From Nitrosopumilaceae archaeon (GTDB taxonomy: Archaea > Thermoproteota > Nitrososphaeria > Nitrososphaerales > Nitrosopumilaceae): a stretch of 64,000 nucleotides of DNA. Shown here piece after piece: positions 3,246 to 59,711 of this stretch (position 1 is the first letter of the stretch; every line of letters begins with the position of its first letter). The translations under genes were made by a program, and so were the position numbers. The notes under the pieces are model-generated. The model saw only the letters and a list, made by a program, of their open reading frames with translations. It did not search any database and was not told where the DNA came from. The stretch is from contig CBDATR010000010.1 in assembly GCA_965200155.1 (NCBI GenBank), positions 256,001 to 320,000 on the forward strand, written 5' to 3'.

Positions 3246-3437
3246 AATACAAAATATATGTACAAACTAATAGACCTTATGCGCATGATTGACAGTAACA
3301 TCCCATATTGCTTCAAACTGGGGTGTATTTTATGGCACACAATCAGGCAAGCATGAACAAACCAATGTTAATGGCACCTACCAGCACTAACGTATGCCGT
3401 GTAGTGAGGGGACCGGATCTTGATGACGTATATCATG

Positions 3438-4398
3438 GTATGAGTCACGTGTTTTGATCACATAATAAGATAGAATGCATCCCAGTTTTTTAATTATAAT
3501 TGCATTCTGGCAGCAACCTCGTTCATTACAGAAATGCCCTGAGCCCTCCATGTCTGAACACATATGGACATTCTGCGCATGACCCTTTCACCACCCTTTA
3601 TCTGGCCACTAATTTTGCGGAATACCACTGCGTATCAGAACCGGTTCCACTGCTCCGCTGGATTGTTGGTGGGCTCCACACCGTCATATTCTAAGAATAC
3701 GAACATGCCTGGTATGGCCTTATTCAATCCTTTTACCTTCTTTTGCAGTTCAGTATCAACATCACAGTACTGATGCATCTGCTCCTGTCTCAAATGAGTG
3801 TCGTAATTGCGCGGACGGCCCGCAGCGATTCACGTGCGCTCCGGAACAATTCTTTCAAATCGTTGTCAAGTTTGATCCGGGCGTCCTGATCACCGGGATC
3901 GATATAGAATCCTGCATGTAATATACTGGTATCGCGCAATAAATGCGCCCAACACAACTGGTGCTTCCCACCGTCATCAAACCGGCGATACACAACGTAC
4001 CTGTCTGTAACTATCGCGCCCTGGTAACCGTTCAGGTATTTGTCCACTACATATGAACTCCTACTTTTGTATATCATCCACTCTTCGGCCCGCATCCCCC
4101 ATATCCAACCACGCTTACCCGCCAGTGATATACCAGTTTCGTCCACATGAATGCTGGGTGATTTTATTATATTCTCATAAATTGTTTCCATAAATGATTC
4201 GCATGCATCGGCGGCCCTGGCAATTATGTTGTTTACCGCACCCACCGATATATTCAGGCCGAAGAGATCCCTCGAAATTACAGGTACGCGTTTTATTGGA
4301 ATCTTTTCCGTACGTAACGCAGTGATGGCACCACATCTCAAAACCACCACTCTCTGGGACGTCCGCTGCTGGGGCCAGTTGTTTTTTGCCGCACATGC
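3438..4398 (-). pseudogene. Truncated, frameshifted IS66 transposase (3' half and right end)
   Basis: Closely similar to the 3' half of the element at 10122-11815, with indels; HVDETG, TDRY, QLCWAHLLR motifs; TIR at 3438. Confidence 0.92.
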
Positions 4399-8000: not shown

Positions 8001-8226
8001 CAGGTTAAGTCTTTTATGCTCCCAATATTAAGTTAAAGTGTATACCTAAAGTAACCTCCAAGTCTCACAGATTGAGTTACACATTCACGTCATAAAATAT
8101 ACACTAGGCTCTGTAACATTAAGCATTGAGTCTGTTCCCAAGACATGTCGAATGGTCCCCTCACATGTGGTACCGCCTAGCCGTACAAGTAGCCTGCTGA
8201 CTGGGGGGAACAAGACCAAAGAAAAC

Positions 8227-8318
8227 GTATGAGTTCACCTGTGTCTAAATTTACGCATAACTGATCGCGACAGTTAATGTGATTTGTACATAAGATTACA
8301 GAAGACGTGAACTCATAC
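8227..8318 (+). mobile_element. MITE-1
   Basis: TIRs; TSD AAGAAAAC. Confidence 0.95.
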
Positions 8319-8381
8319 AAGAAAACATTATTGTGACTTTGGGCACCTAAACGACTACATGGTACGAATTCTCAGGTTACT

Positions 8382-9906
8382 AGACCGTATGCGCAGAATC
8401 ACTTCTCCCACCCTGCACGTCTAAACCAAGTTGTTAGATACGAACAATTGACCTAGTATCATGGGTTTTCCCACAGACTCGTGTGAAACAGAAAAGTTAA
8501 GACCTAATTTTGTAATACCAGGTATGCTAAAAGCAGAAGAACTCACCAGGGAGCAGTTAGTCACAGAGTACTACCGGCTACGCACCGAGTCTGAGGCCGA
8601 AGTAACAAACCTGCGTGGCAAAAATGACAGTCTGCACGCCAAACTTGAAGCTCAAACAAAGAATGCCCTCGTTTCAAATCTTGATGACATCATAGAACGC
8701 AAGGATCAGCTTCATTCCCTGACCGGATGCACCCCGGAAGAGTTCAAATGGATACTAACCAGATTCACAGAATACGTAGAGTCCCTGGAAGGCGATGATG
8801 CACGGCGATTCTTAGAACTTACAAATGATCGCGGGCACGTGAACAAATTTCCGGTCAGGCATGTACTCTTAGTTACACTGATACGCCTGCGCTGCAACAC
8901 AAAGCAGGAGCTGCTGGCAGCAATACTCAAGATAAACCAGTCAAACATATGCCGTTACATCCAGTTTACAAAGCAGGGACTGATCAAGATACTCCCAACG
9001 GCCGATACCGTTGCAAAAGCAATATCACAAATCAAGTCAGCATCGGACTTTAAGGAAATTGTTCCCGGTCGAGCCGGAGGGGAGATAAAGACTGACGGGA
9101 CACATGTACGCGTACAACGTCCTGAAAAAAATCAGGAGGCAATGTACTCTGGTAAACAAAAAACCCACACGTATAACGTACAGATAACATCAAACAAGAA
9201 AAGACTGATAATTCACGTAAGTGGAGTATATGAGGGAAAAAGACACGATTATGGTATATTCAAGAATGATATTCCCCTCGGTGGTAAATGGGGCAAGTCC
9301 CTAAAAGAATCAACCACGCTGCCATCTGAGAATATAACAGTAATAGCAGATGCAGGATACCAGGGTATGAAAGACTTCCTACCCGGCGCAAAGGTCATAA
9401 TTCCATACAGGGGTAGGGAATCACTCACTAAAACTGAAAGGAAATACAACCAATATGTATCAAAAAGGCGCATATTAATCGAGAATGTAATTCGAATGCT
9501 AAAGGTATATCGTAGATTAAGTCAGGTATATGATGGTAGTCGTGAGGAATTCCGGGAAGATCTACTCGTAGTATCCGGGTTGCATAATTTACACATTATG
9601 CACAAGCATACCAGGTACAAGAAATTCTTGAAAAATATCTGTCCATAATTTCCGTGATATTATAATTCGAATATTACTCATCAGAAAATCCACTAAATTA
9701 ATGGGTTTTGTGGTAACCATTTAGCTCACTCATGATATACGTCATCAAGATCCGGTCACCCCACTACACGACATTTGTAATCACGGCATACGTTAGTGCT
9801 GGCAGGTGCCATTAACATTGTTCATGCTTGACTGATTGTGTGCCATAAAATACACCCCAGTTTGAAGCAACATGGGCTATTCCTGTCAATCATGCGCATA
9901 AGGTCT
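8382..9906 (+). mobile_element. IS5-family (ISL2/Harbinger-like) insertion sequence, apparently intact
   Basis: TIR AGACCGTATGCGCA...TGCGCATAAGGTCT; 3-bp TSD ACT. Confidence 0.9.
8461..9648 (+). CDS. DDE transposase (HTH plus DDE_Tnp_4-like); start may be 8524
   Basis: DGTHVRVQRP, YSGKQKTHT, ADAGYQG, RILIENVI motifs. Confidence 0.92.
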   Translation: MGFPTDSCETEKLRPNFVIPGMLKAEELTREQLVTEYYRLRTESEAEVTNLRGKNDSLHAKLEAQTKNALVSNLDDIIERKDQLHSLTGCTPEEFKWILTRFTEYVESLEGDDARRFLELTNDRGHVNKFPVRHVLLVTLIRLRCNTKQELLAAILKINQSNICRYIQFTKQGLIKILPTADTVAKAISQIKSASDFKEIVPGRAGGEIKTDGTHVRVQRPEKNQEAMYSGKQKTHTYNVQITSNKKRLIIHVSGVYEGKRHDYGIFKNDIPLGGKWGKSLKESTTLPSENITVIADAGYQGMKDFLPGAKVIIPYRGRESLTKTERKYNQYVSKRRILIENVIRMLKVYRRLSQVYDGSREEFREDLLVVSGLHNLHIMHKHTRYKKFLKNICP

Positions 9907-10121
9907 ACTGATTGCAATCAAAATATGATAAAATATGCAAAATCCATGCTGTTAATTCTGAGATGAGTGATATACAACCCCTCACAGGCGCTATTAGTAA
10001 CATGATCAGCCAGATAGCTCCAAAATGGCACATTCATAACTAATCTTATAAACAAAATATGTATAAATTCACGTATTTGCTAATCCCGCGTTACTATCTG
10101 CCCGTGCGTAAATGTGGGTTC

Positions 10122-11815
10122 GTATGAGTTCACGTGTTTTGATCACATAATAAGATAGAATGCATCCCAGTTTTTTAATTATAACTGCATTCTGGCAGCA
10201 ACCTCGTTCATTACAGAAAGGCCCTGAGCCCTCCATGTCTGAACACATGATACAAATGTAGACATGCGGCGCATTGCCCTTTCGCCACCCTTTATCTGAC
10301 CACTGATCTTGCGGAATACCACTGCGTATCGCAAAGCCTGCTCCGCTGGATTGTTGGTGGGCTCCACACTGTCATATTCTAAGAATACGAACATGCATGG
10401 TATGGCCTTATTCAATCCTTTTACCTTCTTTTGTAGTTCAGTATCATCAACATCACAGTACTGATGCAGAATGGATTCTGCTCCTGTCTCAAATGAGTGT
10501 CGTAATTGCGCGGACGGCCCGCAGTGATTCAGGGATTCCCGTGCGCTCCGGAACAATCCTTTCAGGTCATTGTCAAGTTTGATCCGGGCGTCCTGAGCAC
10601 CGGGATCAATATAGAATCCTGCATGTAATGCCTGGGTATCGCGCAATAAATGCGCCCAACACAACTGGTGCTTCCCACCGTCATCAAACCGGCGGTACAC
10701 AACGTACCTGTCCGTTACTATCGCTCCCTGGTAACCGTTCAGGTATTTGTTCACTACATTTGAACTCCTACTTTTGTCATATATGGACATCATCCACTCT
10801 TCGGCTCGCATCCCCCATACCCAGCCACGCCTACCCGCCAGTGATATACCAGTTTCGTCCACATGAATGCTGGGTGATTTTATTATATTTTCATGAATTG
10901 TTTCCATAAATGATTCACATGCATCGGCGGCCCTGGCAATTATGTTGTTTACTGCACCCACAGATATATTCAGGCCGAAGAGATCCTTCGAAATTACAGG
11001 TATGCGTTTTATTGGAATCTTTTCCGCACGCAATGCAGTGATGGCACCGCATAATTGAACCCCAAAACTACCACTCTTTGGGACGCCCGCTGCTGGGGCC
11101 AGTTGTTTTTTGCCGCACTTGCATGCAGCCATTTCTATCATATGGTGGGCCTCCTCTATTCTGGCTGGTATTAATTCCGTTATGTGTCGTTGTTTCCAAC
11201 CAATTTTTGTCATTATATTGCCGCACTCACATAGTGGAGTATGCTCAAAGGTGTGATGCACTACTCTGCCGGGGTTGTGGTAACGGGAAACCCCCTTGTG
11301 TCCCTTTTGAGCGCCAGCCTTTTTGGCTGATTTCGTACTGGCTTCTGTCTGTTGCTTATTATCTCCCTGTTTTCGCTTCTGCTCCTCCTGTTTTCGCTTC
11401 TTGTACTGGAGGGATTGAAGGGATGGTGGCGAGTGAGCATTCTCATAATATTTAAGTCGCGTTGTGAGTACCGCAATTTTCCTGTCTTTTTCTACTAATT
11501 CCTCTTTTAATTCACTTACATAATTTCTAATAATTTGGAAATCTTGTATATGATTTCGTATTTCTTTTATGGTGTGTGACATATATGCTTCCAATACTCT
11601 CACACGTTCCTTGTAATGTGCAAGATCTTTCTTGTAATCCTCAATATCTTTCTTGATAGACGCAAGGGTATCCTGAAGAAGTTTATTTTCCAGTTCCAAT
11701 TCCTTATAGGACCGGCGTCTTCTCATTAGATTCTTATTGCAAATTTGGTATTTAAGTAAAATATTGCCATACCAATCTATATCTTAGTGAATGATCAAAA
11801 CACGTGAACTCATAC
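10122..11815 (-). mobile_element. IS66-family element, single ORF, intact
   Basis: 23-bp TIR GTATGAGTTCACGTGTTTTGATC; 8-bp TSD GTGGGTTC. Confidence 0.95.
10179..11726 (-). CDS. IS66 transposase TnpC (515 aa)
   Basis: Coiled coil, SPPS, GAQKGHKG, Zn ribbon, HVDETG, TDRY, QLCWAHLLR, PTNNPAEQALR motifs. Confidence 0.95.
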   Translation of the reverse strand: MRRRRSYKELELENKLLQDTLASIKKDIEDYKKDLAHYKERVRVLEAYMSHTIKEIRNHIQDFQIIRNYVSELKEELVEKDRKIAVLTTRLKYYENAHSPPSLQSLQYKKRKQEEQKRKQGDNKQQTEASTKSAKKAGAQKGHKGVSRYHNPGRVVHHTFEHTPLCECGNIMTKIGWKQRHITELIPARIEEAHHMIEMAACKCGKKQLAPAAGVPKSGSFGVQLCGAITALRAEKIPIKRIPVISKDLFGLNISVGAVNNIIARAADACESFMETIHENIIKSPSIHVDETGISLAGRRGWVWGMRAEEWMMSIYDKSRSSNVVNKYLNGYQGAIVTDRYVVYRRFDDGGKHQLCWAHLLRDTQALHAGFYIDPGAQDARIKLDNDLKGLFRSARESLNHCGPSAQLRHSFETGAESILHQYCDVDDTELQKKVKGLNKAIPCMFVFLEYDSVEPTNNPAEQALRYAVVFRKISGQIKGGERAMRRMSTFVSCVQTWRAQGLSVMNEVAARMQL

Positions 11816-11998: not shown

Positions 11999-12700
11999 TT
12001 GCTTCATACAGGTTTTAACTTGCAACAGAGAACTATGTTTTATGGCATAGTATGTACATTGGCGTGCACCGCTATTCTGGGTGAGGCTCATGCGCACACG
12101 CTGGACTCAATGGAGGGGTATCGTCTAGAGATAGGATGGATGAATAGTCCACCTTATTCCGGAGAGGTAAATGCCATAGTCTTACACATAAGCCCAATGA
12201 TGCCAGGGCTGGAACTGGAAGAGCAGCCATTTAGAGACGGCGTAGCAGGTCTACGAGACACCCTAAAGATGCAGCTGGTCTCTGCAACTTCCAGTCTCAC
12301 ATTGAGACTGGATCCTGACCCCGACATACCCGGCAAATATTATGTGTTTACCAAAATAAACAGGCCAGGCTTCTATCAAGCCAATCTTATAGGCACCATA
12401 AATGACGCCAACATTAACATCAGTATGCACCCGCCTCAAGTACGCAACGCCGAGCATATCACGTTTCCTCAGGAATATGGTATGATATACGATGTAGTTG
12501 CAACACAGGATATGCTACAGGAGAGATTGGACAACATTACACTTTCACACCAAGCGGAGTTTGAAGAGATTCGCCAAGAAATAGACATACAGGAACAACC
12601 TGTAGAACCAACGCTGCCATACGTAATTGCAGGTATTGGGGTAGTTATGGGAGCAGTGGCCATGGGCATGGCTGCCAAGACATACAGAAGGCTAGGATAG
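11999..12700 (+). CDS. Hypothetical exported, membrane-anchored protein (start may be ~12035)
   Basis: Signal peptide ending AHAH, EIGW..PP motif, C-terminal TM helix. Confidence 0.75.
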   Translation: MLHTGFNLQQRTMFYGIVCTLACTAILGEAHAHTLDSMEGYRLEIGWMNSPPYSGEVNAIVLHISPMMPGLELEEQPFRDGVAGLRDTLKMQLVSATSSLTLRLDPDPDIPGKYYVFTKINRPGFYQANLIGTINDANINISMHPPQVRNAEHITFPQEYGMIYDVVATQDMLQERLDNITLSHQAEFEEIRQEIDIQEQPVEPTLPYVIAGIGVVMGAVAMGMAAKTYRRLG

Positions 12701-12789
12701 ATCTAGCATCATCATAAGAGTGAGCGCGCGACCAAATGTAATACCGGCAGTGCCATACAGAAGGCTAGGATAGATCTAGCACCATCATA
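12681..12789. repeat. 36-bp direct duplication flanking a 37-bp foreign insert
   Basis: CATACAGAAGGCTAGGATAGATCTAGCA(T/C)CATCATA at 12681-12716 and 12754-12789. Confidence 0.92.
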
Positions 12790-13872: not shown

Positions 13873-14114
13873 GTAACCGTTTAGGTCAAGTTAAGTATGA
13901 GTTCACGTCTTCCGGAATCTTATGCACAAATCACATTAACTGTCGCGATCAGTTATGCGTAAATTTAGACACAGGTGAACTCATACCAAGTTAAAGATCA
14001 ACACCTAGACGGTAAATTAGTGGGCATGTGGGAGGCGCCATAATAGAAAAAGCAAGAACATACATGTTCGCCGTGTATTTTGGACAGTTGTCCGGAGGTG
14101 ACCTAAACGGTTAC
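13873..14114. mobile_element. MITE-2 with nested MITE-1
   Basis: GTAACCGTTTAGGTCA...TGACCTAAACGGTTAC; flanks GCCCCAGAT/GCTCCAGAT. Confidence 0.9.
13895..13986 (-). mobile_element. MITE-1
   Basis: TIRs; TSD CAAGTTAA. Confidence 0.96.
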
Positions 14115-15052: not shown

Positions 15053-16583
15053 TAGCGGTCACCATAAGTCTTTGAGAACATGGCACCTCGTTCCTGGATG
15101 GTACATGGCTTTGGCTTGTCACCATTATTCCCGCCCTGACGCCTCCGGTTGGGCGGGTAGCGGTTCCCTGCCCCCCGGACGACACGCTCTGCCGCCCCAT
15201 ACAGAGAAACCGGTTACTAAACGCCGCGTTGATATCGGCGTGAAATTCCTGGTTACATATTGAATGTGTCCCTAGTTGATCGTGATTTGTCGTCAACGTG
15301 TCCACACACGTCATAGGTCTGGCTCGTTGGGCGGGTAAACCGCTCCCTCGTGTATTTCGCTGGCACAGCCACCAATTCAATCCCCAGCGCCTCGCACTTT
15401 TGCTCCACTCTCCGGCGGAACACGCCTACCCGGTTCTCGCGCATGGAGCGGTTCATCATTCTTTTGTGGTTCCCACCATGACTGGTCATTGATTTCGGTG
15501 ATAAATCCTCTAGTACCACCTTGTCCACACCTGATGTCACAGCATTTATCCATGCGAATATTATCCAAATATTGCCTGACCGCTAGTACTACCTTGTCCA
15601 CACCTGATGTCACAGCATTGACTATTCTATTCATGGTGTCATTCGTGATATTATTCGCCTGCTGCCTCAACTGGTTGATTTTCTTTTCGATCTTTCGCTT
15701 TCTGCGCTTACCCTTTCTGGATTTAATACTCTGTAGGTAACGGATCTCCCGCAATATGGAACGATGCCTCATGTCGTGAATCATTGTTCCACCATTCGTG
15801 TCGGCTGTTACAACCAGGTGTTTCCTGCCGACATCCACGCCACGAATGACACCGGTTGTCACATGCCTTTCGGGAACGATTCCAACATTGATATGAATCT
15901 CGAATTTGCGTTCTCCTGGAAGTCCTCTTGTCTGTTCTCTCGACTAGTTTGAATGAGCGCATGTTCCAGGAATGAACGATTGGCTTTGTCGTTCTCGCGA
16001 CACCAAAACCCGACAAGTATAGTTTGCGAGAACCGCGCCTTATCGGCGGACTCACACATGAAAGTATGATTCTTTTATTGTCACGCCGGTGTGGTATGTA
16101 ATCAGAATGATCCTCGTACGCGCGCCTACACGCGATAGGCGCCTGTAATATGGCGCCCCGGCCATAGTTAACTGGTAACTTGTGCACCAATTCAATATCA
16201 CGACGCCACTTTGTTAATTCCAAGAATAGACCATTTGTATAACCGTTCTAGAACGTGGTAGCTGATTCATGTAGAGTGGATCGCCCTTCTTAAGATTGTA
16301 TGGTGACTTGGCGGACTCGTTCCTATTCTTGACCTTGGCCGGATCATGCTTCAATTCTAGAGTGGTTCCGGGCATATCATAACCGCCAAGACTGATCTCG
16401 TATACGGCTCTCTATTATAGACACAATCGGATGTATGACCAAATATCTTGGTACGCCGGGAGGATTCCCTATCCGTTTTCAACGGTATTCCGGGTTATGT
16501 CATCCATTATCTGGTGATTCTACTCTAGTAGTGGTTCTATAAAGTACGGTTCTATACCCGGCAGAGACTTATGATGGGCGTTA
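15053..16583 (-). mobile_element. tnpB: TIR-bounded element carrying a frameshifted TnpB gene (subfamily A, copy 1)
   Basis: RuvC motifs GVDVG, VLEDL, HADINAA across frames; ends TAGCGGTCACCATAAGTCTTTG / CAGAGACTTATGATGGGCGTTA; TA on both flanks. Confidence 0.88.
15510..15619. repeat. 37-bp direct duplication flanking a 36-bp foreign insert, inside tnpB
   Basis: CTAGTAC(C/T)ACCTTGTCCACACCTGATGTCACAGCATT at 15510-15546 and 15583-15619; absent from the paralog near 27514. Confidence 0.92.
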
Positions 16584-18819: not shown

Positions 18820-19061
18820 GTAACCGTTTAGGTCGCGTAAAAATTAGGTATGAGTTCACGTCTTCCGGAATCTCATGCACAAATCACATTAACTGTCGCG
18901 ATCAGTTATGCGTAAATTTAGACACAGGTGAACTCATACAAAATCAGACATCTAGAGGATAAATCAGTGGGCATGCGTGAGACATCATGATAGAAAAAGC
19001 AAGAATGGGTATGTTCGCGGTGTATTTTGAGCGGTTGTCTAGGAGTGACCTAAATGGTTAC
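18820..19061. mobile_element. MITE-2 with nested MITE-1
   Basis: GTAACCGTTTAGGTC...GACCTAAATGGTTAC; TSD TCATAATG. Confidence 0.9.
18848..18939 (-). mobile_element. MITE-1
   Basis: TIRs; TSD AAAATTAG/AAAATCAG. Confidence 0.94.
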
Positions 19062-19317
19062 TCATAATGCTGGCTGCAAAGTCAGGAACCGAAGCTGTGC
19101 CCAGCCACTATAGGATATTTGTACTGCCGGGCGACATGGCACGTGTTAAGATTGAAAGTTATTCCGGAATGGCAAATTAGGCGCAGCACAGGCCTGCGGC
19201 CGAACCTGGCACATGCAATGGCAGGCACGTATCTCAAATGTGTTTAAAACTGCAATAAACGGTCACCAGTGGACCGGTCACAATTTCATCCATCTGTATC
19301 ACACTACTGCCATCCTC

Positions 19318-29985: not shown

Positions 29986-30674
29986 ATTGGAACACCCATT
30001 CTATACTGCGGAGTAATGGCACCGTCTCTCATATTTATTATACGATCCACATCGCCAAAATCGTTCGGATCATGGGTCACCACCACAAATGTCTGGTTGA
30101 GTTTATGACACATGGACTTGAGTAGCTGTACAATGTTCTCCGAGTTAGTTGAGTCCAGGTTTCCAGTGGGCTCATCGGCCAACACTAACGCGGGTCGGTT
30201 GGCCAATCCTCGGGCAATGGCGGCACGCTGCGCCTGGCCACCAGAGATGCGATCCGCCCTTTTGTACATATGATCTTCCAGTCCCACTGTACGAAGGAGT
30301 TCCTTGGCGTACTCTTTGGCGTTACTCCCGCCAGCAACCTGTACCGGCAACATCACGTTCTCTAGTACGGTTAGATCCACCAGCAGGTTGGAGAACTGGA
30401 ATACAAAACCAAGTTTCTTACTGCGGAAAGTGGATGTCTTGGACTCGTTAAGTGAGGTGGTGTCGATGCCGTCTATTCTTATGGTACCGTCATCAGGCTT
30501 GTCCAGTAAGCCAATCTGGTTAAGCAGGGTAGTCTTGCCGGAACCGGAACTCCCAGATATCAGTACAAACTGGCCTCTTTTTATGGTGAAGGACACCTCA
30601 TTCAATGCCAAGAAGCGGTTCTCGCCCTGTCCATACTCCTTGGTCAGGCCGGTGACTTCCAGTATATCATCCAT
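29982..30674 (-). CDS. ABC transporter ATP-binding protein (LolD/MacB-like)
   Basis: [25 protein letters not shown] motifs. Confidence 0.95.
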
Positions 30675-31875
30675 ATCTCATTGCCTCCACCGGCAATAGC
30701 CTGGTAGCCCTGTAGGACGGATACAGTGACGCAATCATGGCAAGAGCAAAAGACGTAGCTGCGGTCTGTCCTATTTTGAACCAGTCATAAGATACCTCCA
30801 GGGGCAGGCTGTTGTTGAAGGAGAGCTTGGTCTCCTTGGCATAGAATGTGTACGCAAGACCCGCGGACGTTCCCACGCCAGCTCCAATGGCACCAATCAG
30901 CATACCCTGTATGAGAAATATTATCAGAACATCCCTTCGTCGTGCCCCAATCGACCTCATAATGCCTATCTCCTTGGTCTTGCCATTGACCAGCATCATC
31001 TGAATTGTCACTATGGCAAAGGCCGAAGACATCATGCCAAAGTATCCAATTAGGTTTATCATTGCTATGCCAGAACGGAAGCCAGCCAATTGTTGCTCGG
31101 CAGACTCCTCCAGAGTCTCTGCCACAAAGTCCTGGTATGGGAAGGACACCAAAAAGAGATCCCGAACCTCCTCTGCCCTGTCCGGATCCACGCGAACCAT
31201 TATAGAACCGGTAACACCATCTCGGCCAAGCATATCCCGCAATGTATCTATATGTAAGACTGCCCGAAAGTCCAGACCCTGCCCTCCAGGAGAGTTGGAT
31301 ATGCCAGATACCACCAACCGTCTCACCTGATCTTGCCCCCAGCGATCGGTGACACCCAGTTGTACGGCGTCACCAACCTGCACATCACCCAAATCCCTGG
31401 CCACTGTTGCTCCCAGAACTATGGAGTTGCGTGCATAGACATAGGTACCGTCATTTACGGTAGTGTGCGCAGTGGATGCGCGCACATCCTGAATAGGATC
31501 CACACCCAGAAGAGAAACCCTGCTGTTCTGTATTAGCTGGCCATTCTTTGTCATATTTATCTCACCGCTACCGGATAATCGGGGGGCCGCGGCATCCACA
31601 TAAGGTATACGCTCAAACCAGTTTATTAGGGTCCTATCTGACATCTCGATAAGGCCACGCTCATGAGTGACTAGTAACTCCCCGTTATGGTATTCGGTGA
31701 TATCCCGAACTATGGCGTCGTACAATCCCTGAAATACTACAAAATTCACGTGTAGTACCAGGATGCCCACGGTGACTGCCATGATGGCGCCTATCAGACT
31801 TCCCTTCTTGTTAAATAGCATTTTCCTAGAAAGGTTTAGTCTGTAATCCATCCTGTCTTTAGAAGCACTTTTCAC
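30667..31875 (-). CDS. ABC transporter permease (FtsX/LolC-like)
   Basis: KEIGIMRSIGA, YPSYRATRL motifs; 4-TM topology. Confidence 0.92.
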   Translation of the reverse strand: MKSASKDRMDYRLNLSRKMLFNKKGSLIGAIMAVTVGILVLHVNFVVFQGLYDAIVRDITEYHNGELLVTHERGLIEMSDRTLINWFERIPYVDAAAPRLSGSGEINMTKNGQLIQNSRVSLLGVDPIQDVRASTAHTTVNDGTYVYARNSIVLGATVARDLGDVQVGDAVQLGVTDRWGQDQVRRLVVSGISNSPGGQGLDFRAVLHIDTLRDMLGRDGVTGSIMVRVDPDRAEEVRDLFLVSFPYQDFVAETLEESAEQQLAGFRSGIAMINLIGYFGMMSSAFAIVTIQMMLVNGKTKEIGIMRSIGARRRDVLIIFLIQGMLIGAIGAGVGTSAGLAYTFYAKETKLSFNNSLPLEVSYDWFKIGQTAATSFALAMIASLYPSYRATRLLPVEAMRYG

Positions 31876-32030
31876 TATTTAGTTATACGGTTATCCTAGT
31901 GCTAACTGTCCAAGTGGCAGTCACACTTCCCCCCACCATGGTACCGGTATGCTCCCGGCGGACATGTATGCACTGCACACGTCAGAATGGCGCGCCGAGG
32001 ATTGTGGAATTTGGCACCATTGCGCCCCAG

Positions 32031-32140
32031 AATGCCGAACGCTGGAACAGTTACTCCCAGTGAATCCTTATGCCATGATTGACAGTAACAGCCCATGTTG
32101 CTTCAATGCCGAACGCTGGAACAGTTACTCCCAGTGAATC
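32031..32140. repeat. 36-bp direct duplication flanking a 38-bp insert copied from the IS5-element end
   Basis: AATGCCGAACGCTGGAACAGTTACTCCCAGTGAATC at 32031-32066 and 32105-32140. Confidence 0.93.
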
Positions 32141-32208
32141 TATGGAGTATAAATCACGATTGCGCTCCGACAGGTGTTTTAAAATTAGGGAGTGGTAGGA
32201 TTAGTCCT

Positions 32209-33528
32209 ATGGAGGTATCGGCTAGGGAAAAATACGAAGAGGTATTCTCCCGTATTCAGGATCACCACAAATGGTTTGCCCAGTCCATACCCCTCATAGC
32301 TAGCGAGAACGTACCCAGTCCGGCCGTGCGGGAGGCCATAATCTCGGATTTTGGTAACAGGTATGCAGAGGGTTGGCCCGGGGAGAGGGTGTATGCGGGA
32401 TGCACGTATATCGATGAGGTGGAGATAGAGTGTATGAAGCTGGCGCAGAGGCTGTATGATGCAGAGTTTGTGGATGTGAGGCCCATATCAGGAGTGGTTG
32501 CAAACTTGGTGGTCTATTCGGCGTTTACCAAGGCAGGGAACACATTACTGGCACCATCCATACCCGCGGGAGGGCACATATCCCACGGAAAACGCGAGCA
32601 TTCCGGAACCGCAGGGTTGGTACACGGGCTGGATGTGAAATTCTATCCGTTTGATCCTAAAGAGATGAACATTGATGTGGATAAGACAAAGAGTATGATA
32701 GAAAAGACGGTCGCATCCGGCGACACCCCAAAAATGGCAATGTTTGGCGGATCACTATTCTTGTTCCCCCACCCCCTGCGGGAACTGGCAGATTTTCTAA
32801 AATCACACGGCATGCATATCAATTATGATGCCGCCCATGTAGCGGGGTTAATCGCGGGAGGGGAGTTTCAGGATCCACTAAGAGAGGGAACGGACACCAT
32901 GACTATGAGTACCCACAAGACCCTTTTTGGTCCCCAGGGTGGCATAGTAATAGGCAACCATGACAACCAGGAGGCCATAAAAAAGGCCACCTTCCCGGGC
33001 ATGACCAGCAGCCACCACATACACCACATGGCCGCCAAGGCCATAGCATTCGCTGAAGCCTTGGAGTTTGGCAGGTCCTACGCAAAGCAGACCATAACAA
33101 ACGCCCAGGCACTGGCAGAGGCGCTGGTGGAGAGAGGCTTCAAGGTACTGGGCGAGAACCACAACTACACCAAGTCACACCAGGTAGCGGTGGATGTTCT
33201 GGAGTACTCTGACGGCGGCCAGGTAGAGGCCCAGTTGGAGAAGGCCAACATAATAGTGAACAGGCAGCTCATACCGGGCGACATAAAGATGGGTCGAAAC
33301 TATTTCCATCCCGGCGGCATACGGCTGGGAGTCTCCGAGGTCACAAGATTGGGAATGCGTAAAGACCAGATGCTGCAGATAGCCGATCTCATCAAAGAGG
33401 TAATAATAGAACACAAAGATCCAGTCCGGACAAAAGAGAAGGTCTCAGAGCTCCGCAGAGACTTTCAGAAGGTGCATTACTGCTTTGATGCCAAGACAGG
33501 GGCTTACGAGTACATCAAGCTCCGGTAA
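32209..33528 (+). CDS. glyA: Serine hydroxymethyltransferase
   Basis: LIASEN, RYAEG, GGHISHG, YDAAHVAG, STHKT motifs. Confidence 0.97.
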   Translation: MEVSAREKYEEVFSRIQDHHKWFAQSIPLIASENVPSPAVREAIISDFGNRYAEGWPGERVYAGCTYIDEVEIECMKLAQRLYDAEFVDVRPISGVVANLVVYSAFTKAGNTLLAPSIPAGGHISHGKREHSGTAGLVHGLDVKFYPFDPKEMNIDVDKTKSMIEKTVASGDTPKMAMFGGSLFLFPHPLRELADFLKSHGMHINYDAAHVAGLIAGGEFQDPLREGTDTMTMSTHKTLFGPQGGIVIGNHDNQEAIKKATFPGMTSSHHIHHMAAKAIAFAEALEFGRSYAKQTITNAQALAEALVERGFKVLGENHNYTKSHQVAVDVLEYSDGGQVEAQLEKANIIVNRQLIPGDIKMGRNYFHPGGIRLGVSEVTRLGMRKDQMLQIADLIKEVIIEHKDPVRTKEKVSELRRDFQKVHYCFDAKTGAYEYIKLR

Positions 33529-40647: not shown

Positions 40648-42434
40648 GTATGAGTTCACGTCTTCCGGAATATTGTACACAAATCACATTAACTGTCGCG
40701 ATCAGTTATGCGTAAATTTAGACACAGGTGAACTCATGTATGAGTTCACGTGTTTTGATCATTCACTAAGATATAGATTGGTATGGCAATATTTTACTTA
40801 AATACCAAATTTGCAATAAGAATCTAATGAGAAGACGCCGGTCCTATAAGGAATTGGAACTGGAAAATAAACTTCTTCAGGATACCCTTGCGTCTATCAA
40901 GAAAGATATTGAGGATTACAAGAAAGATCTTGCACATTACAAGGAACGTGTGAGAGTATTGGAAGCATATATGTCACACACCATAAAAGAAATACGAAAT
41001 CATATACAAGATTTCCAAATTATTAGAAATTATGTAAGTGAATTAAAAGAGGAATTAGTAGAAAAAGACAGGAAAATTGCGGTACTCACAACGCGACTTA
41101 AATATTATGAGAATGCTCACTCGCCACCATCCCTTCAATCCCTCCAGTACAAGAAGCGAAAACAGGAGGAGCAGAAGCGAAAACAGGGAGATAATAAGCA
41201 ACAGACAGAAGCCAGTACTAAATCAGCCAAAAAGGCTGGCGCTCAAAAGGGACACAAGGGGGTTTCCCGTTCCCACAACCCCGGCAGAGTAGTGCATCAC
41301 ACCTTTGAGCATACTCCACTATGTGAGTGCGGCAATATGATGACAAAAATTGGTTGGAAACAACGACACATAACGGAATTAATACCCGCCAAAATAGAGG
41401 AGACCCTTCATGTGATAGAAATGGCTGCATGCAAGTGCGGCAAAAAACAACTGGCCCCAGCAGCTGGCGTCCCAAAGAGTGGTAGTTTTGGGGTTCAATT
41501 ATGCGGTGCCATCACTGCATTGCGTGCGGAAAAGATTCCAATAAAACGCATACCTGTAATTTCGAAGGATCTCTTCGGCCTGAATATATCTGTGGGTGCA
41601 GTAAACAACATAATTGCCAGGGCCGCCGATGCATGTGAATCATTTATGGAAACAATTCATGAGAATATAATAAAATCACCCAGCATACATGTGGACGAAA
41701 CTGGTATATCACTGGCGGGTAGGCGTGGCTGGGTATGGGGGATGCGGGCCGAAGAGTGGATGATGTCCATATATGACAAAAGTAGGAGTTCAAATGTAGT
41801 GAACAAATACCTGAACGGTTACCAGGGAGCGATAGTAACGGACAGGTACGTTGTGTACCGCCGGTTTGATGACGGTGGGAAGCACCAGTTGTGTTGGGCG
41901 CATTTATTGCGCGATACCCAGGCATTACATGCAGGATTCTATATCGATCCCGGTGCTCAGGACGCCCGGATCAAACTTGACAACGACCTGAAAGGATTGT
42001 TCCGGAGCGCACGTGAATCCCTGAATCACTGCGGGCCGTCCGCGCAATTACGACACTCATTTGAGACAGGAGCAGATGCATCAGTACTGTGATGTTGATG
42101 ATACTGAACTACAAAAGAAGGTAAAAGGATTGAATAAGGCCATACCAGGCATGTTCGTATTCTTAGAATATGACAGTGTAGAGCCCACCAACAATCCAGC
42201 GGAGCAGGCTTTGCGATACGCAGTGGTATTCCGCAAGATTAGTGGCCAGATAAAGGGTGGCGAAAGGGCAATGCGCCGCATGTCTACATTCGTATCATGC
42301 GTTCAGACATGGAGGGCTCAAGGCCTTTCTGTAATGAACGAGGTTGCTGCCAGAATGCAGTTATAATTAAAAAAACTGGGATGTATTCTATATTATTATG
42401 TGATCAAAACACGTGAACTCATACGAACTCATAC
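40648..42434 (-). mobile_element. MITE-1 split by IS66 insertion in its TIR
   Basis: Outer TSD CATTAATT (40640-47, 42435-42); inner TSD GAACTCAT. Confidence 0.93.
40738..42424 (+). mobile_element. IS66-family element, full length, transposase frameshifted
   Basis: Same TIRs as 10122-11815; ORFs 40827-42092 and 42061-42366 split by an 8-bp deletion. Confidence 0.94.
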
Positions 42435-54608: not shown

Positions 54609-55451
54609 CTACGCCTGCAAAGCCTGGGGTGCGGTCCAAGCCTCGTTTATCTCCTGAAATACGCTCAGGTTATGCATAGCCGCGGTTCCTATTTGGACTG
54701 CTGTAGCGCCCACCTGCAGAAATTGAAATACGTCTTTTGCATTGCATATGCCACCACACCCCATAATGGGTATGGTATTGCCATGTCTCACTCTTATGTC
54801 ATGTATGGTTCTCAGGGCTATGGGTTTTATGGGCTTGCCTGAGAGTCCGCCGGTACCGTGACTGAGCAGTGGCCGCCCTGCATCATCCAGTGCTAGGGCA
54901 GGTACAGTGTTTATCGCCGTTATTCCGTCTATGCCAGCCTTTATTGCTACGTCGACGCCGGGCATCATGCTTGGTCCAACCTTGGCAAAGACGGGCGTGG
55001 TGTGGGCAACTTTTTTTGCCGTAGACACTATATCCTGTACTAACTTCGGATTGTCTCCTACCTCCCGACCCAGATGCTCTGCATGGGGACATGACAAGTT
55101 CAGCTCAAATCCCGCAACACCATCAAACAGGGGTATCATTTCGGCAAAATCGTCGGGGGAGGATCCCGCCATGCTCACTATTACGGGAAAACTTGGTCTT
55201 CCCAGGGCGCGGGCAAACTGGTGGGCTCCGCCATTATTCAGGCCTATGGCGTTAACATAACCGCCTCCATCCACCGGTACAAAGTTGGGCTCTGGATTGC
55301 CCTCACGCGGATTCACGGTAAGTGACTTTGTAACCGTTGCACCCGCGCCACTCTTGTATACCTCTTCTAGACTCTGTGGTGTATTTCCCCGCAGACCCGA
55401 TGCCAGGATTGCGGGCCCCTCTAGCGTCAGCGGACCTAAGTGTATGGACAT
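54609..55451 (-). CDS. pyrD: Dihydroorotate dehydrogenase (family 1)
   Basis: TKSLT..REGNPEP, NAIGL, ELNLSCPH, GGLSG, GCGGI motifs. Confidence 0.92.
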   Translation of the reverse strand: MSIHLGPLTLEGPAILASGLRGNTPQSLEEVYKSGAGATVTKSLTVNPREGNPEPNFVPVDGGGYVNAIGLNNGGAHQFARALGRPSFPVIVSMAGSSPDDFAEMIPLFDGVAGFELNLSCPHAEHLGREVGDNPKLVQDIVSTAKKVAHTTPVFAKVGPSMMPGVDVAIKAGIDGITAINTVPALALDDAGRPLLSHGTGGLSGKPIKPIALRTIHDIRVRHGNTIPIMGCGGICNAKDVFQFLQVGATAVQIGTAAMHNLSVFQEINEAWTAPQALQA

Positions 55452-55531
55452 TGCCGTTAATACCACGCTTATTTACCAAATAAATCTCAAATGACTAGCG
55501 TCAGCGGACCTAAGTGTATGGACATTGCCGT
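55421..55531. repeat. 37-bp perfect direct duplication flanking a 37-bp insert, at the pyrD 5' end
   Basis: CTAGCGTCAGCGGACCTAAGTGTATGGACATTGCCGT at 55421-57 and 55495-531. Confidence 0.93.
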
Positions 55532-58232: not shown

Positions 58233-58261
58233 ATCATGTCATCACACCTGGGAGAATTAAA

Positions 58262-58353
58262 GTATGAGTTCACGTCTTCCGGAATCTTGTGCACAAATCA
58301 CATTAACTGTCGCGATCAGTTGTGCGTAAATTTAGACACAGGTGAACTCATAC
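58262..58353 (-). mobile_element. MITE-1
   Basis: TIRs; TSD GAATTAAA. Confidence 0.96.
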
Positions 58354-58381
58354 GAATTAAAATCTGTGGTGTCAACTATTG

Positions 58382-58473
58382 GTATGAGTTCACGTCTTCC
58401 GGAATCTTATGCACAAATCACATTAACTGTAGCGATCAGTTATGCGTAAATTTAGACACAGGTGAACTCATAC
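58382..58473 (-). mobile_element. MITE-1 immediately after the coaBC stop codon
   Basis: TIRs; TSD AACTATTG includes the stop codon. Confidence 0.96.
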
Positions 58474-58475
58474 AA

Positions 58476-59711
58476 CTATTGTTTTATGCTGGCATACTTA
58501 TTCTCTATTGCGTCCTTGATAAATCGGACTATCTCCTCTTTTACTTTGCGCCCCGAGCTGGTATGTTCGTCCCTGTCTACAACAATGACTAGGTTACTGT
58601 CTGAGTCATTCTGGTATCCGTCCCCCACATCGTTTGCCACTATCATATCTGCCTCCGTCTCTAGGAGCTTGTCCCGGGCGGACTTTACGAGATCGTCCTG
58701 GGATACGTTAACCTCTGCCTTGAAGCCCACAAGCATGGATTGAGGGGCAGCCTTTCTTAGGCGATTTATTATCCTAGGCGCCCTGTTCATAGCTATATTC
58801 AATCCATCCTGCTCACTGTCTATCTTGTCTCGATTGTACTCTGCCGGAATATAGTCCGCGGCCGCGGCCGCCATTACTATAATATCGTGGTTATTCTGGG
58901 CCTCCCTGAGTGTGGCCGCCATCATCTCTGCCACGCTGATAACGTTTATGACCTTGGCGCCCTCAGGAGCCCTCTCCCTTCCGGGACCGTACACCATGGT
59001 GACATCACACCCGTCCAAGATTAGCTCACTGGCCAGCAAGACTCCCGTACGTCCGGAACTGGTGTTGGTAATGGCCCTCACCGGATCTATCAACTCCATG
59101 GTTGGTCCGGCCACCACCAGAACCCGCTTGCTCCTAAGTCTGGACGGTTTGGTTATAATATCCATTATGGCGTCCGATACCTCCTGCGGTTCTGCCACCT
59201 TGGCCTTGCCTTCTGTTATGCTGGGTGGCATAAACCGAGCCCATTGAGACAATGACTTTATGTTTCGCTGTATCACACTGTTCTCGTACATGGCCTCGTG
59301 CATGGCCGGGCAGATAATGATGGGTGTCTTGGAGCCCAGCGCCACGGTTAGCACTGACGTGGGTGCCGTATCGTCTATGCCACATGCCATCTTGCTTATG
59401 GTGTTGGCCGTGGCCGGATACGCCACTACCATATCAGCCCTGCCAAAGTCTGCCAGCTCCACATGTTTCATATCCCCATCCAGTACCGATACGGCACGAT
59501 TGCCCGTAGCCCATGTCATGTAATCGGTAGTGATGAGCCTGGTGGCGGATTCGCTCATGACGCATTGGACTGATGCTCCATGCCGCATAAGCATCCTGGC
59601 CAAGTCTATGGCCTTATACGCGGCCACACTCCCGGAGATGCAGAGTACTATACTCTTTCCTGATAGCTGTGCGCTGTCGGTTCCGGTAATGTCAAGCGAT
59701 GGATGTGTCAT
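58476..59711 (-). CDS. coaBC: Phosphopantothenoylcysteine decarboxylase/ligase
   Basis: SGSVAAYK, PATANT, PAMH, DPVRAITNTSSG, GFKAE, VANDV motifs. Confidence 0.96.
   Translation of the reverse strand: MTHPSLDITGTDSAQLSGKSIVLCISGSVAAYKAIDLARMLMRHGASVQCVMSESATRLITTDYMTWATGNRAVSVLDGDMKHVELADFGRADMVVAYPATANTISKMACGIDDTAPTSVLTVALGSKTPIIICPAMHEAMYENSVIQRNIKSLSQWARFMPPSITEGKAKVAEPQEVSDAIMDIITKPSRLRSKRVLVVAGPTMELIDPVRAITNTSSGRTGVLLASELILDGCDVTMVYGPGRERAPEGAKVINVISVAEMMAATLREAQNNHDIIVMAAAAADYIPAEYNRDKIDSEQDGLNIAMNRAPRIINRLRKAAPQSMLVGFKAEVNVSQDDLVKSARDKLLETEADMIVANDVGDGYQNDSDSNLVIVVDRDEHTSSGRKVKEEIVRFIKDAIENKYASIKQ

Follow-up and report, generated by a model that had tools for sequence, protein, structure and literature searches.

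The stretch of DNA analysed here, referred to as the window (64,000 nucleotides of a Nitrosopumilaceae archaeon), carries a small repeat-insert-repeat unit, U26, upstream of glyA. With a probability of about 0.85, U26 is a recent, probably non-functional scar of off-target spacer integration by the type I-G Cas4/1-Cas2 adaptation machinery. The unit is real and appears recent: its two repeats agree at 36 of 36 positions, its insert agrees with a donor about 132 kb away at 38 of 38 positions, and the repeat-insert junction is present in public sequencing runs at the depth of the flanks. We infer the enzyme responsible and the order of the steps at U26 from sequence.

Structure of the unit upstream of glyA

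U26 occupies positions 32031-32140 of the window and consists of a 36-nt repeat, a 38-nt insert and an identical second copy of the repeat. It lies in the intergenic space between a permease gene and glyA, with the following features in order along the window:

30667..31875, minus strand: gene for an FtsX/LolCE-like ABC permease, divergent, upstream
32031-32066: neo-repeat R1 (first target copy), exact duplicate of 32105-32140
32067-32104: U26 insert, the ectopic spacer, 38 nt of IS5-family subterminal sequence
32105-32140: neo-repeat R2 (second target copy), exact duplicate of 32031-32066
32209..33528, plus strand: glyA, serine hydroxymethyltransferase (NF000586, 1.4e-133)

The first-pass annotation had described a 38-bp insert at 32067-32104 in one unit, and the description holds, with exact 36-nt repeats flanking the 38 nt. 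The duplication measures exactly 36 nt, because the bases just outside the two copies differ (G versus C on the left, C versus T on the right). The window holds exactly two copies of the repeat, AATGCC...GAATC, against none in 100 shuffles, and no further copy is found in the 2.38-Mb genome when up to three mismatches are allowed. The likely start of glyA is the in-frame ATG at 32209, and U26 ends 68 nt upstream of it; the NF000586 profile begins at residue 48 of the open reading frame that opens at 32095. Rfam returns no credible match in 31700-32400. A scan for bacterial-type promoters and terminators finds nothing, its models being unsuited to archaea.

The genome encodes an archaeal AmoA, so the host is an ammonia-oxidising archaeon. 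The intergenic part of the locus is unmatched in 40 related genomes, where matches are confined to glyA (about 77% identity) and the permease gene, overall at about 70-80% identity, and the U26 repeat is unmatched in metagenome contigs. Neither source shows an empty allele of U26.

The assembly (G000, 2.38 Mb) is metagenome-derived, comprises 51 contigs, is 87.6% complete and is rich in repeats, all of which would favour an assembly artefact. Public runs speak against this. Seven runs from two studies contain the U26 stretch, none of them an RNA run; four are labelled as sponge metagenome, and the three of the second study bear just a coded organism name. In four runs from two studies, a 59-nt unitig (32037-32095) spans the junction between R1 and the insert at 0.92-1.07 of the depth of the flanking contigs. 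The junction unitigs show no differing letters in these four runs; being built from 31-mers, they are blind to a minority empty allele of U26, and one sample may be the assembly's own source, which makes the runs not fully independent. The junction unitigs rule out a one-off assembly error, and the probability that U26 is an artefact is very low.

Origin of the insert

Whole-genome BLAST places the exact donor of the insert at C10:156134-156171 on the minus strand (38/38), outside the window and 131.9 kb upstream. The match extends to 41/41 by including 1 nt (C) of the left flank and 2 nt (AA) of the right flank. The first-pass annotation had proposed capture from a distant locus, had noted C and AA as microhomology at the junctions and had advised a BLAST search for the exact donor copy; the search recovers that copy, and the donor alignment confirms both the distant source and the shared junction bases. 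Junction homology of 1 + 2 nt is estimated to arise by chance in about 5% of cases.

The donor is a 128-nt IS-end fragment between two MITE copies and is flanked by TTT, read on the minus strand of the window. Among the 60 IS-end copies listed, a 1-nt deletion and all other variant positions are common to the insert and this donor only. Two further copies of the same end lie within the window:

3271..3437, plus strand: 167-nt fragment of the IS5-family end, 84.6% identical to 9907-9731 and including 3276-3314
8381..9907, plus strand: full IS5-family copy with ends TAGACCGTATGCGCAG and TAGACCTTATGCGCAT (reverse complement)

In an alignment of 42 columns with a single gap, the insert is 92.9% identical to window positions 3275-3316. 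A second alignment pairs it with the right end of the full copy (9864-9902, reverse complement). Both alignments, reported earlier as matches to IS5-family subterminal sequence at 3276-3314 and 9864-9902, hold up; compared with the insert, each of the two copies has one additional base and two substitutions. The insert had been said to start 4 bp inside the terminal inverted repeat; because the conserved IS end begins TAGACC and its TA may be a target duplication, the start lies either 3 or 5 nt inside.

The full copy encodes the IS5-family transposase as a 395-aa open reading frame (8461-9648) with DDE_Tnp_4, DDE_Tnp_1 and HTH_Tnp_4 domains, and this IS5-family end has about 60 copies in the genome. 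The end fragment is interrupted at 3438 by an IS66-family element that matches 10122-11122 and 42424-41431. IS66-family copies in the window lie at 10179-11726 (minus strand), 40729-42424 and 3438-4398. A MITE-like element of about 112 nt is present roughly 600 times in the genome; at least 16 of these copies lie in the window, for example at 13888-13999, 8218-8328 and 58255-58486.

A genome-wide family of similar units

When every contig is searched for near-exact direct repeats at each period between 50 and 110 nt, many units of the same form appear. Periods 71-75 account for 61 repeats of 34-39 nt outside the array (4, 27, 17, 7 and 6, respectively), and the other 56 periods of the range yield 20 combined. 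Wider limits give 68 pairs, from which U30 and U31 were dropped as a coding tandem repeat. Five of the remaining 66 pairs are paralogous to other units, leaving about 61 distinct events. The 66 pairs are spread over 13 of the 51 contigs and combine 36-37-nt duplications with 34-40-nt inserts at periods 71-75. Their neo-repeats are arbitrary and mostly unique sequences, identical within the pair in 48 of 66 units, and their inserts are mutually unrelated. Duplications of 37 nt (31 cases) outnumber those of 36 nt (20 cases), an excess that chance extension from 36 nt does not predict. Three of these units accompany U26 in the window:

12681..12789: U24, 36-nt repeats with one mismatch, 37-nt insert
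15510..15619: U25, 37-nt repeats with one mismatch, 36-nt insert; inside a duplicated element
55421..55531: U27, exact 37-nt repeats, 37-nt insert

Uninterrupted copies of the targets are preserved in several cases. The element that carries U25 has a paralog without the insertion; the offset between the two falls from 12004 ahead of the unit to 11931 behind it, so that exactly the 73 nt of the U25 period are missing from the paralog. Five recurrent neo-repeats have multicopy targets, which are single in 53/66, 77/82, 73/74, 4/6 and 71/73 loci and duplicated with an insert in the remaining ones.

Some units have grown to three or four repeats. A hot spot is formed by a 36-nt piece of a multicopy element found at 66 loci, 13 of which hold two to four copies (for example C24:500845-501098, C10:83012-83120 and C24:460667-460774). 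Two to four of these loci have spacings of 71-73 only (C24:500845, C31:2830, perhaps C10:210131 and C13:47756), and in five the spacing is either always 66 or a mixture of 66 and 72; some of the expanded copies seem to have spread along with the element.

Other features of the set concern sequence and frame. Two adjacent units at C24:352098-352298 have staggered, overlapping targets, the end of the first repeat, AATGCATCAGGCATTA, forming the beginning of the second. AATGC as a 5' start is seen again in U26, U43 and U49. Periods that keep the reading frame (72 or 75) are found in 35 of 66 ectopic units versus 100 of 284 in the canonical array (Fisher 0.011), an excess that hints at selection where units fall in genes.

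A complete genome of the same genus (G005, 2.21 Mb) served as a control; it has a type I-G system with a Cas4/1 that is 59% identical. Its array supplies 62 repeat pairs of 36 nt at periods 70-76, the majority of those found. Outside that array the same scan gives eight matches at periods 71-75, of which at most three resemble ectopic units; six of the eight, all of period 75, are apparently protein-coding repeats, judged by eye from their recurring sequence.

The resident type I-G CRISPR system

Contig C9 encodes an intact adaptation module, in which a Cas4g/Cas1g fusion (710 bits, cut-off 560; 549 aa, without stops) is followed by Cas2; past the array come Cas3g, a Cas3-extension protein, Csb2 and Csb1. 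This fusion is the only Cas1 found in the assembly. Its closest match in the wider genome contigs is 51% identical, too distant to stand in as an empty site for the neo-array between cas1 and cas2; same-genus relatives, which reach 58-59%, were used for that comparison. The array itself (C9:71011-92087) has 289 repeats, all exactly 36 nt long and 287 of them identical. Of its 288 spacers, 284 measure 35-40 nt, most often 37:

Canonical spacer length (nt), count: 35, 16; 36, 85; 37, 101; 38, 63; 39, 15; 40, 4; other, 4

Because a 36-nt duplication and a 38-nt insert fit the repeats and spacers of this array, U26 has the dimensions of one spacer acquisition round. The earlier idea that the insert was a prespacer gains from this match and from the place of U26 as one of 66 such pairs.

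Searched against the rest of the genome, all 288 canonical spacers lack a full-length match. Two have weak or partial genomic matches: spacer 58 (26-28 nt, with the U53 insert) and one other (17 nt, E 0.003). The U53 insert (C25:4797-4831) overlaps spacer 58 (C9 ~75210) by 26 nt with an 11-nt offset; the overlap speaks for a shared protospacer, a common source of the two is absent from the assembly, and their shared core is unmatched in viral contigs in one scan. Matches of the canonical spacers yielded no PAM for this particular system. Elsewhere, close to a contig end, a solitary near-canonical repeat (33/36) at C43:128228-128263 on the minus strand follows a leader-like sequence (...GTTAACCTGCGCGGT); it may be what is left of a second leader-repeat.

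Sources of the inserts and choice of targets

At least 27 of the 61 distinct inserts copy the genome's own DNA, counted as near-perfect matches outside paralogous units, versus 0 of 288 canonical spacers (Fisher 1e-23). This difference fits self-targeting selection that acts in the working array only. In our reading, the working array has been purged of self-targeting spacers and the ectopic units have not. This reading implies that the units give no working guides. U26 likewise probably makes no working guide RNA and would be a neutral, recent by-product.

The donors come from varied places. For 24 inserts other than U26 the genome contains one other match, and 20 of the self-derived inserts could be aligned without differences to a unique donor. 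The DNA surrounding the donors of U07, U12, U15, U37 and U66 is single-copy, and the inserts of U14, U39 and U55 come from the interior of elements with 6-13 copies, a 12-copy element in the case of U39 and U55. U26 is the only insert found at the end of a mobile element; by a rough estimate that counts the roughly 600 MITE copies and the IS ends, about 30 self-derived inserts would include one such case by chance with a probability of about 0.1. The first-pass annotation had derived the insert from a free transposon end. Such a source is not needed, given that at least 26 other inserts also copy the genome's own DNA. Neither this source nor the enrichment of other inserts for IS ends, which the annotation had suggested looking for, draws support from the set, in which U26 is the only case.

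The units also cluster near the adaptation genes. Five lie within 10 kb upstream of the array versus 0.28 expected (P 1e-5). Two of these five form a neo-array of three repeats and two spacers at the cas4/1-cas2 junction (C9:70400-70613; L003 ~18900-19113); its first repeat contains the stop codon of cas4/1, its last the ATG of cas2, and both of its inserts have donors in the genome (exact for U11, 36/37 for U12). In three relatives, the cas4/1-cas2 gap is 2-6 nt long and free of repeats.

Target ends carry a weak motif, nnT(G/T)C, across the set. Read inward, 90 ends of 50 non-redundant targets 35-38 nt long show T at position 3 in 44 cases, G at position 4 in 36 (C in only 8) and C at position 5 in 38; the triplet TGC or TTC spans positions 3-5 in 19 of them, where 2.8 are expected. 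The canonical repeat has TTC at these positions at both ends (ATTTCC... on one strand, CCTTCA... on the other), and both U26 ends, AATGCC on the plus strand and GATTCA on the minus strand, fit the motif. In type I-G systems TTN serves as the PAM. Flanks of the TTN type are present at 8 of the 20 unique donors, including that of U26 (TTT), versus about 2.7 expected (P 0.003), with ambiguous boundaries allowed for in two of the eight; the other 12 donors are without one.

Overall similarity to the canonical repeat is a weak discriminator, with a mean identity of 14.3/36 for all neo-repeats versus 13.6 for controls. On the plus strand and in register, U26 agrees with the canonical repeat at 15/36 positions, mostly at both ends; 1.9% of genomic 36-mers do at least as well. 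Shifted by 1 nt on the minus strand, it agrees at 17/36, chiefly near a common TAAC bordered by a short palindrome, and 4% of control sites do at least as well. The cues to orientation conflict, the putative PAM pointing to the minus strand and the end similarity being better on the plus strand.

Alternative explanations

Templated repair, which the first-pass annotation had raised as an alternative, would fill a break or stalled fork with a microhomology-primed copy of the IS end and add a local 36-nt duplication, without any Cas protein. The donor match does continue for 1 nt (C) into the left repeat and for 2 nt (AA) into the right one, as this model predicts, and a few sister units have extra junction homology (5 nt at U35, 2 nt at U47), but U08, U40, U41 and U65 have none. 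The model predicts neither the concentration of 61 of 81 repeat pairs at periods 71-75, with duplications of 36-37 nt, nor the fit to the dimensions of the resident array, the clustering beside cas1-cas2 or the near absence of units in a relative. It leaves the strict 71-75-nt periodicity of the whole set unexplained and is improbable. Off-target integration by Cas4/1-Cas2 remains the preferred reading.

A functional role for U26 is harder still to credit. Transcribed as a working mini-CRISPR, it would supply a guide against the IS5-family element, curbing transposition or regulating glyA, and its repeat-spacer-repeat form, a spacer that matches an IS end adjoining a TTT flank and a neo-repeat able to form a 6-bp central hairpin all suit such a role. 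However, the neo-repeat is only 15-17/36 identical to the canonical repeat and folds no better than shuffled sequences (z -1.5 and -0.7 versus -3.5 for the canonical repeat), and no known RNA family matches the region. Moreover, the guide would aim Cas3 at the chromosome itself, where 11 sites (the donor and ten others) match the 31 PAM-proximal nucleotides exactly. Less probable again is a decayed IS remnant or solo terminal repeat, left after insertion and excision of an IS5-family element. The insert is indeed IS-end sequence with about 60 end copies in the genome, and the first-pass annotation had reasoned that a match continuing into the flanks would make the locus such a remnant. The donor match enters the flanks by 1 and 2 nt only, so U26 is not an IS remnant. 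Furthermore, homology ends at 38-41 nt without including the last 3-5 nt of the IS, the 36-nt duplication on either side greatly exceeds the 2-nt TA found next to this IS, and the inserts of the other units are unrelated.

Proposed mechanism and implications

Off-target spacer integration could produce U26 as follows. A 38-nt prespacer would arise from an IS5-family end fragment like that at C10:156134-156171. The integrase would then attack both strands of the DNA between the permease gene and glyA at sites 36 nt apart, its usual repeat-length measure, and the prespacer ends would be joined at the two attacked sites. Gap repair would finally duplicate the 36-nt target, yielding the repeat-insert-repeat structure.

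A broader reading, which we hold tentatively and at slightly below even odds, is that the genome keeps a natural and largely unselected record of type I-G captures and their target sites. It would comprise about 61 off-target events, nearly half of them drawn from self DNA and biased toward the cas locus, with several neo-repeats that have gained a second or third spacer as arrays at birth. If this reading is true, the insert in U26 would show that excised transposon ends feed the adaptation machinery. About 60 dated, donor-resolved events make it possible to count the rate at which self DNA is sampled, the minimal target that is accepted, the effect of proximity to the cas locus and the growth of a one-spacer unit into an array. 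They also call for caution in annotation, as such units resemble tiny CRISPR arrays or odd repeats and are probably inert.

Comparison with known systems

Casposons are kilobase-sized, have terminal inverted repeats and leave duplications of about 14-15 bp. Like casposon integration by the casposase, the units described here point to Cas1-family integration with target-site duplication. Unlike casposons, their inserts measure 35-39 nt and are mutually unrelated, and the only Cas1 found is that of the CRISPR system.

Mini-arrays and standalone repeat-like elements in cas loci (10.1101/2023.03.03.530964) share with the present set the occurrence of one-spacer units outside the main arrays, and one neo-array here likewise lies inside the cas operon. 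The repeats of those mini-arrays are CRISPR-related and a regulatory role is implicated, whereas the neo-repeats here are arbitrary, local and distributed chromosome-wide.

Canonical type I-G adaptation by Cas4/1-Cas2 (PMC10274657) matches the units in enzyme family, 36-nt ruler, 35-40-nt spacers and, in part, the TTN flank. Unlike the canonical process, the events here use targets that have neither a leader nor a canonical repeat, many of the donors are without a PAM, and the inserts are mostly self-derived.

The nearest precedent is off-target integration that founds neo-CRISPR loci in the E. coli type I-E system (Nivala, Shipman & Church 2018, as cited in passages of 10.1101/148544, PMC6698737 and PMC7054753). 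For two other species, a passage citing that work speaks only of "circumstantial evidence" for neo-CRISPR. As far as these passages describe the E. coli loci, they share with the present units a spacer-sized insert, a repeat-length duplication and a non-array chromosomal site that is weakly repeat-like. Neo-CRISPR is a proposed route to new arrays, and some units here reach three or four repeats. The E. coli work, as the same passages present it, relied on over-expressed Cas1-Cas2, unlike the natural archaeal type I-G system with its Cas4/Cas1 fusion considered here; a further difference is that about 61 events are fixed in one genome here, with donors for at least 27. Within the literature located, no description of dozens of natural off-target units in one genome was found. 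Off-target spacer integration is a proposed origin of new CRISPR arrays that, in the passages cited, has so far been documented in engineered E. coli and in circumstantial natural cases. U26 and its sister units are thus of a kind already known as neo-CRISPR, and it is their load in one natural archaeal genome that is unusual.
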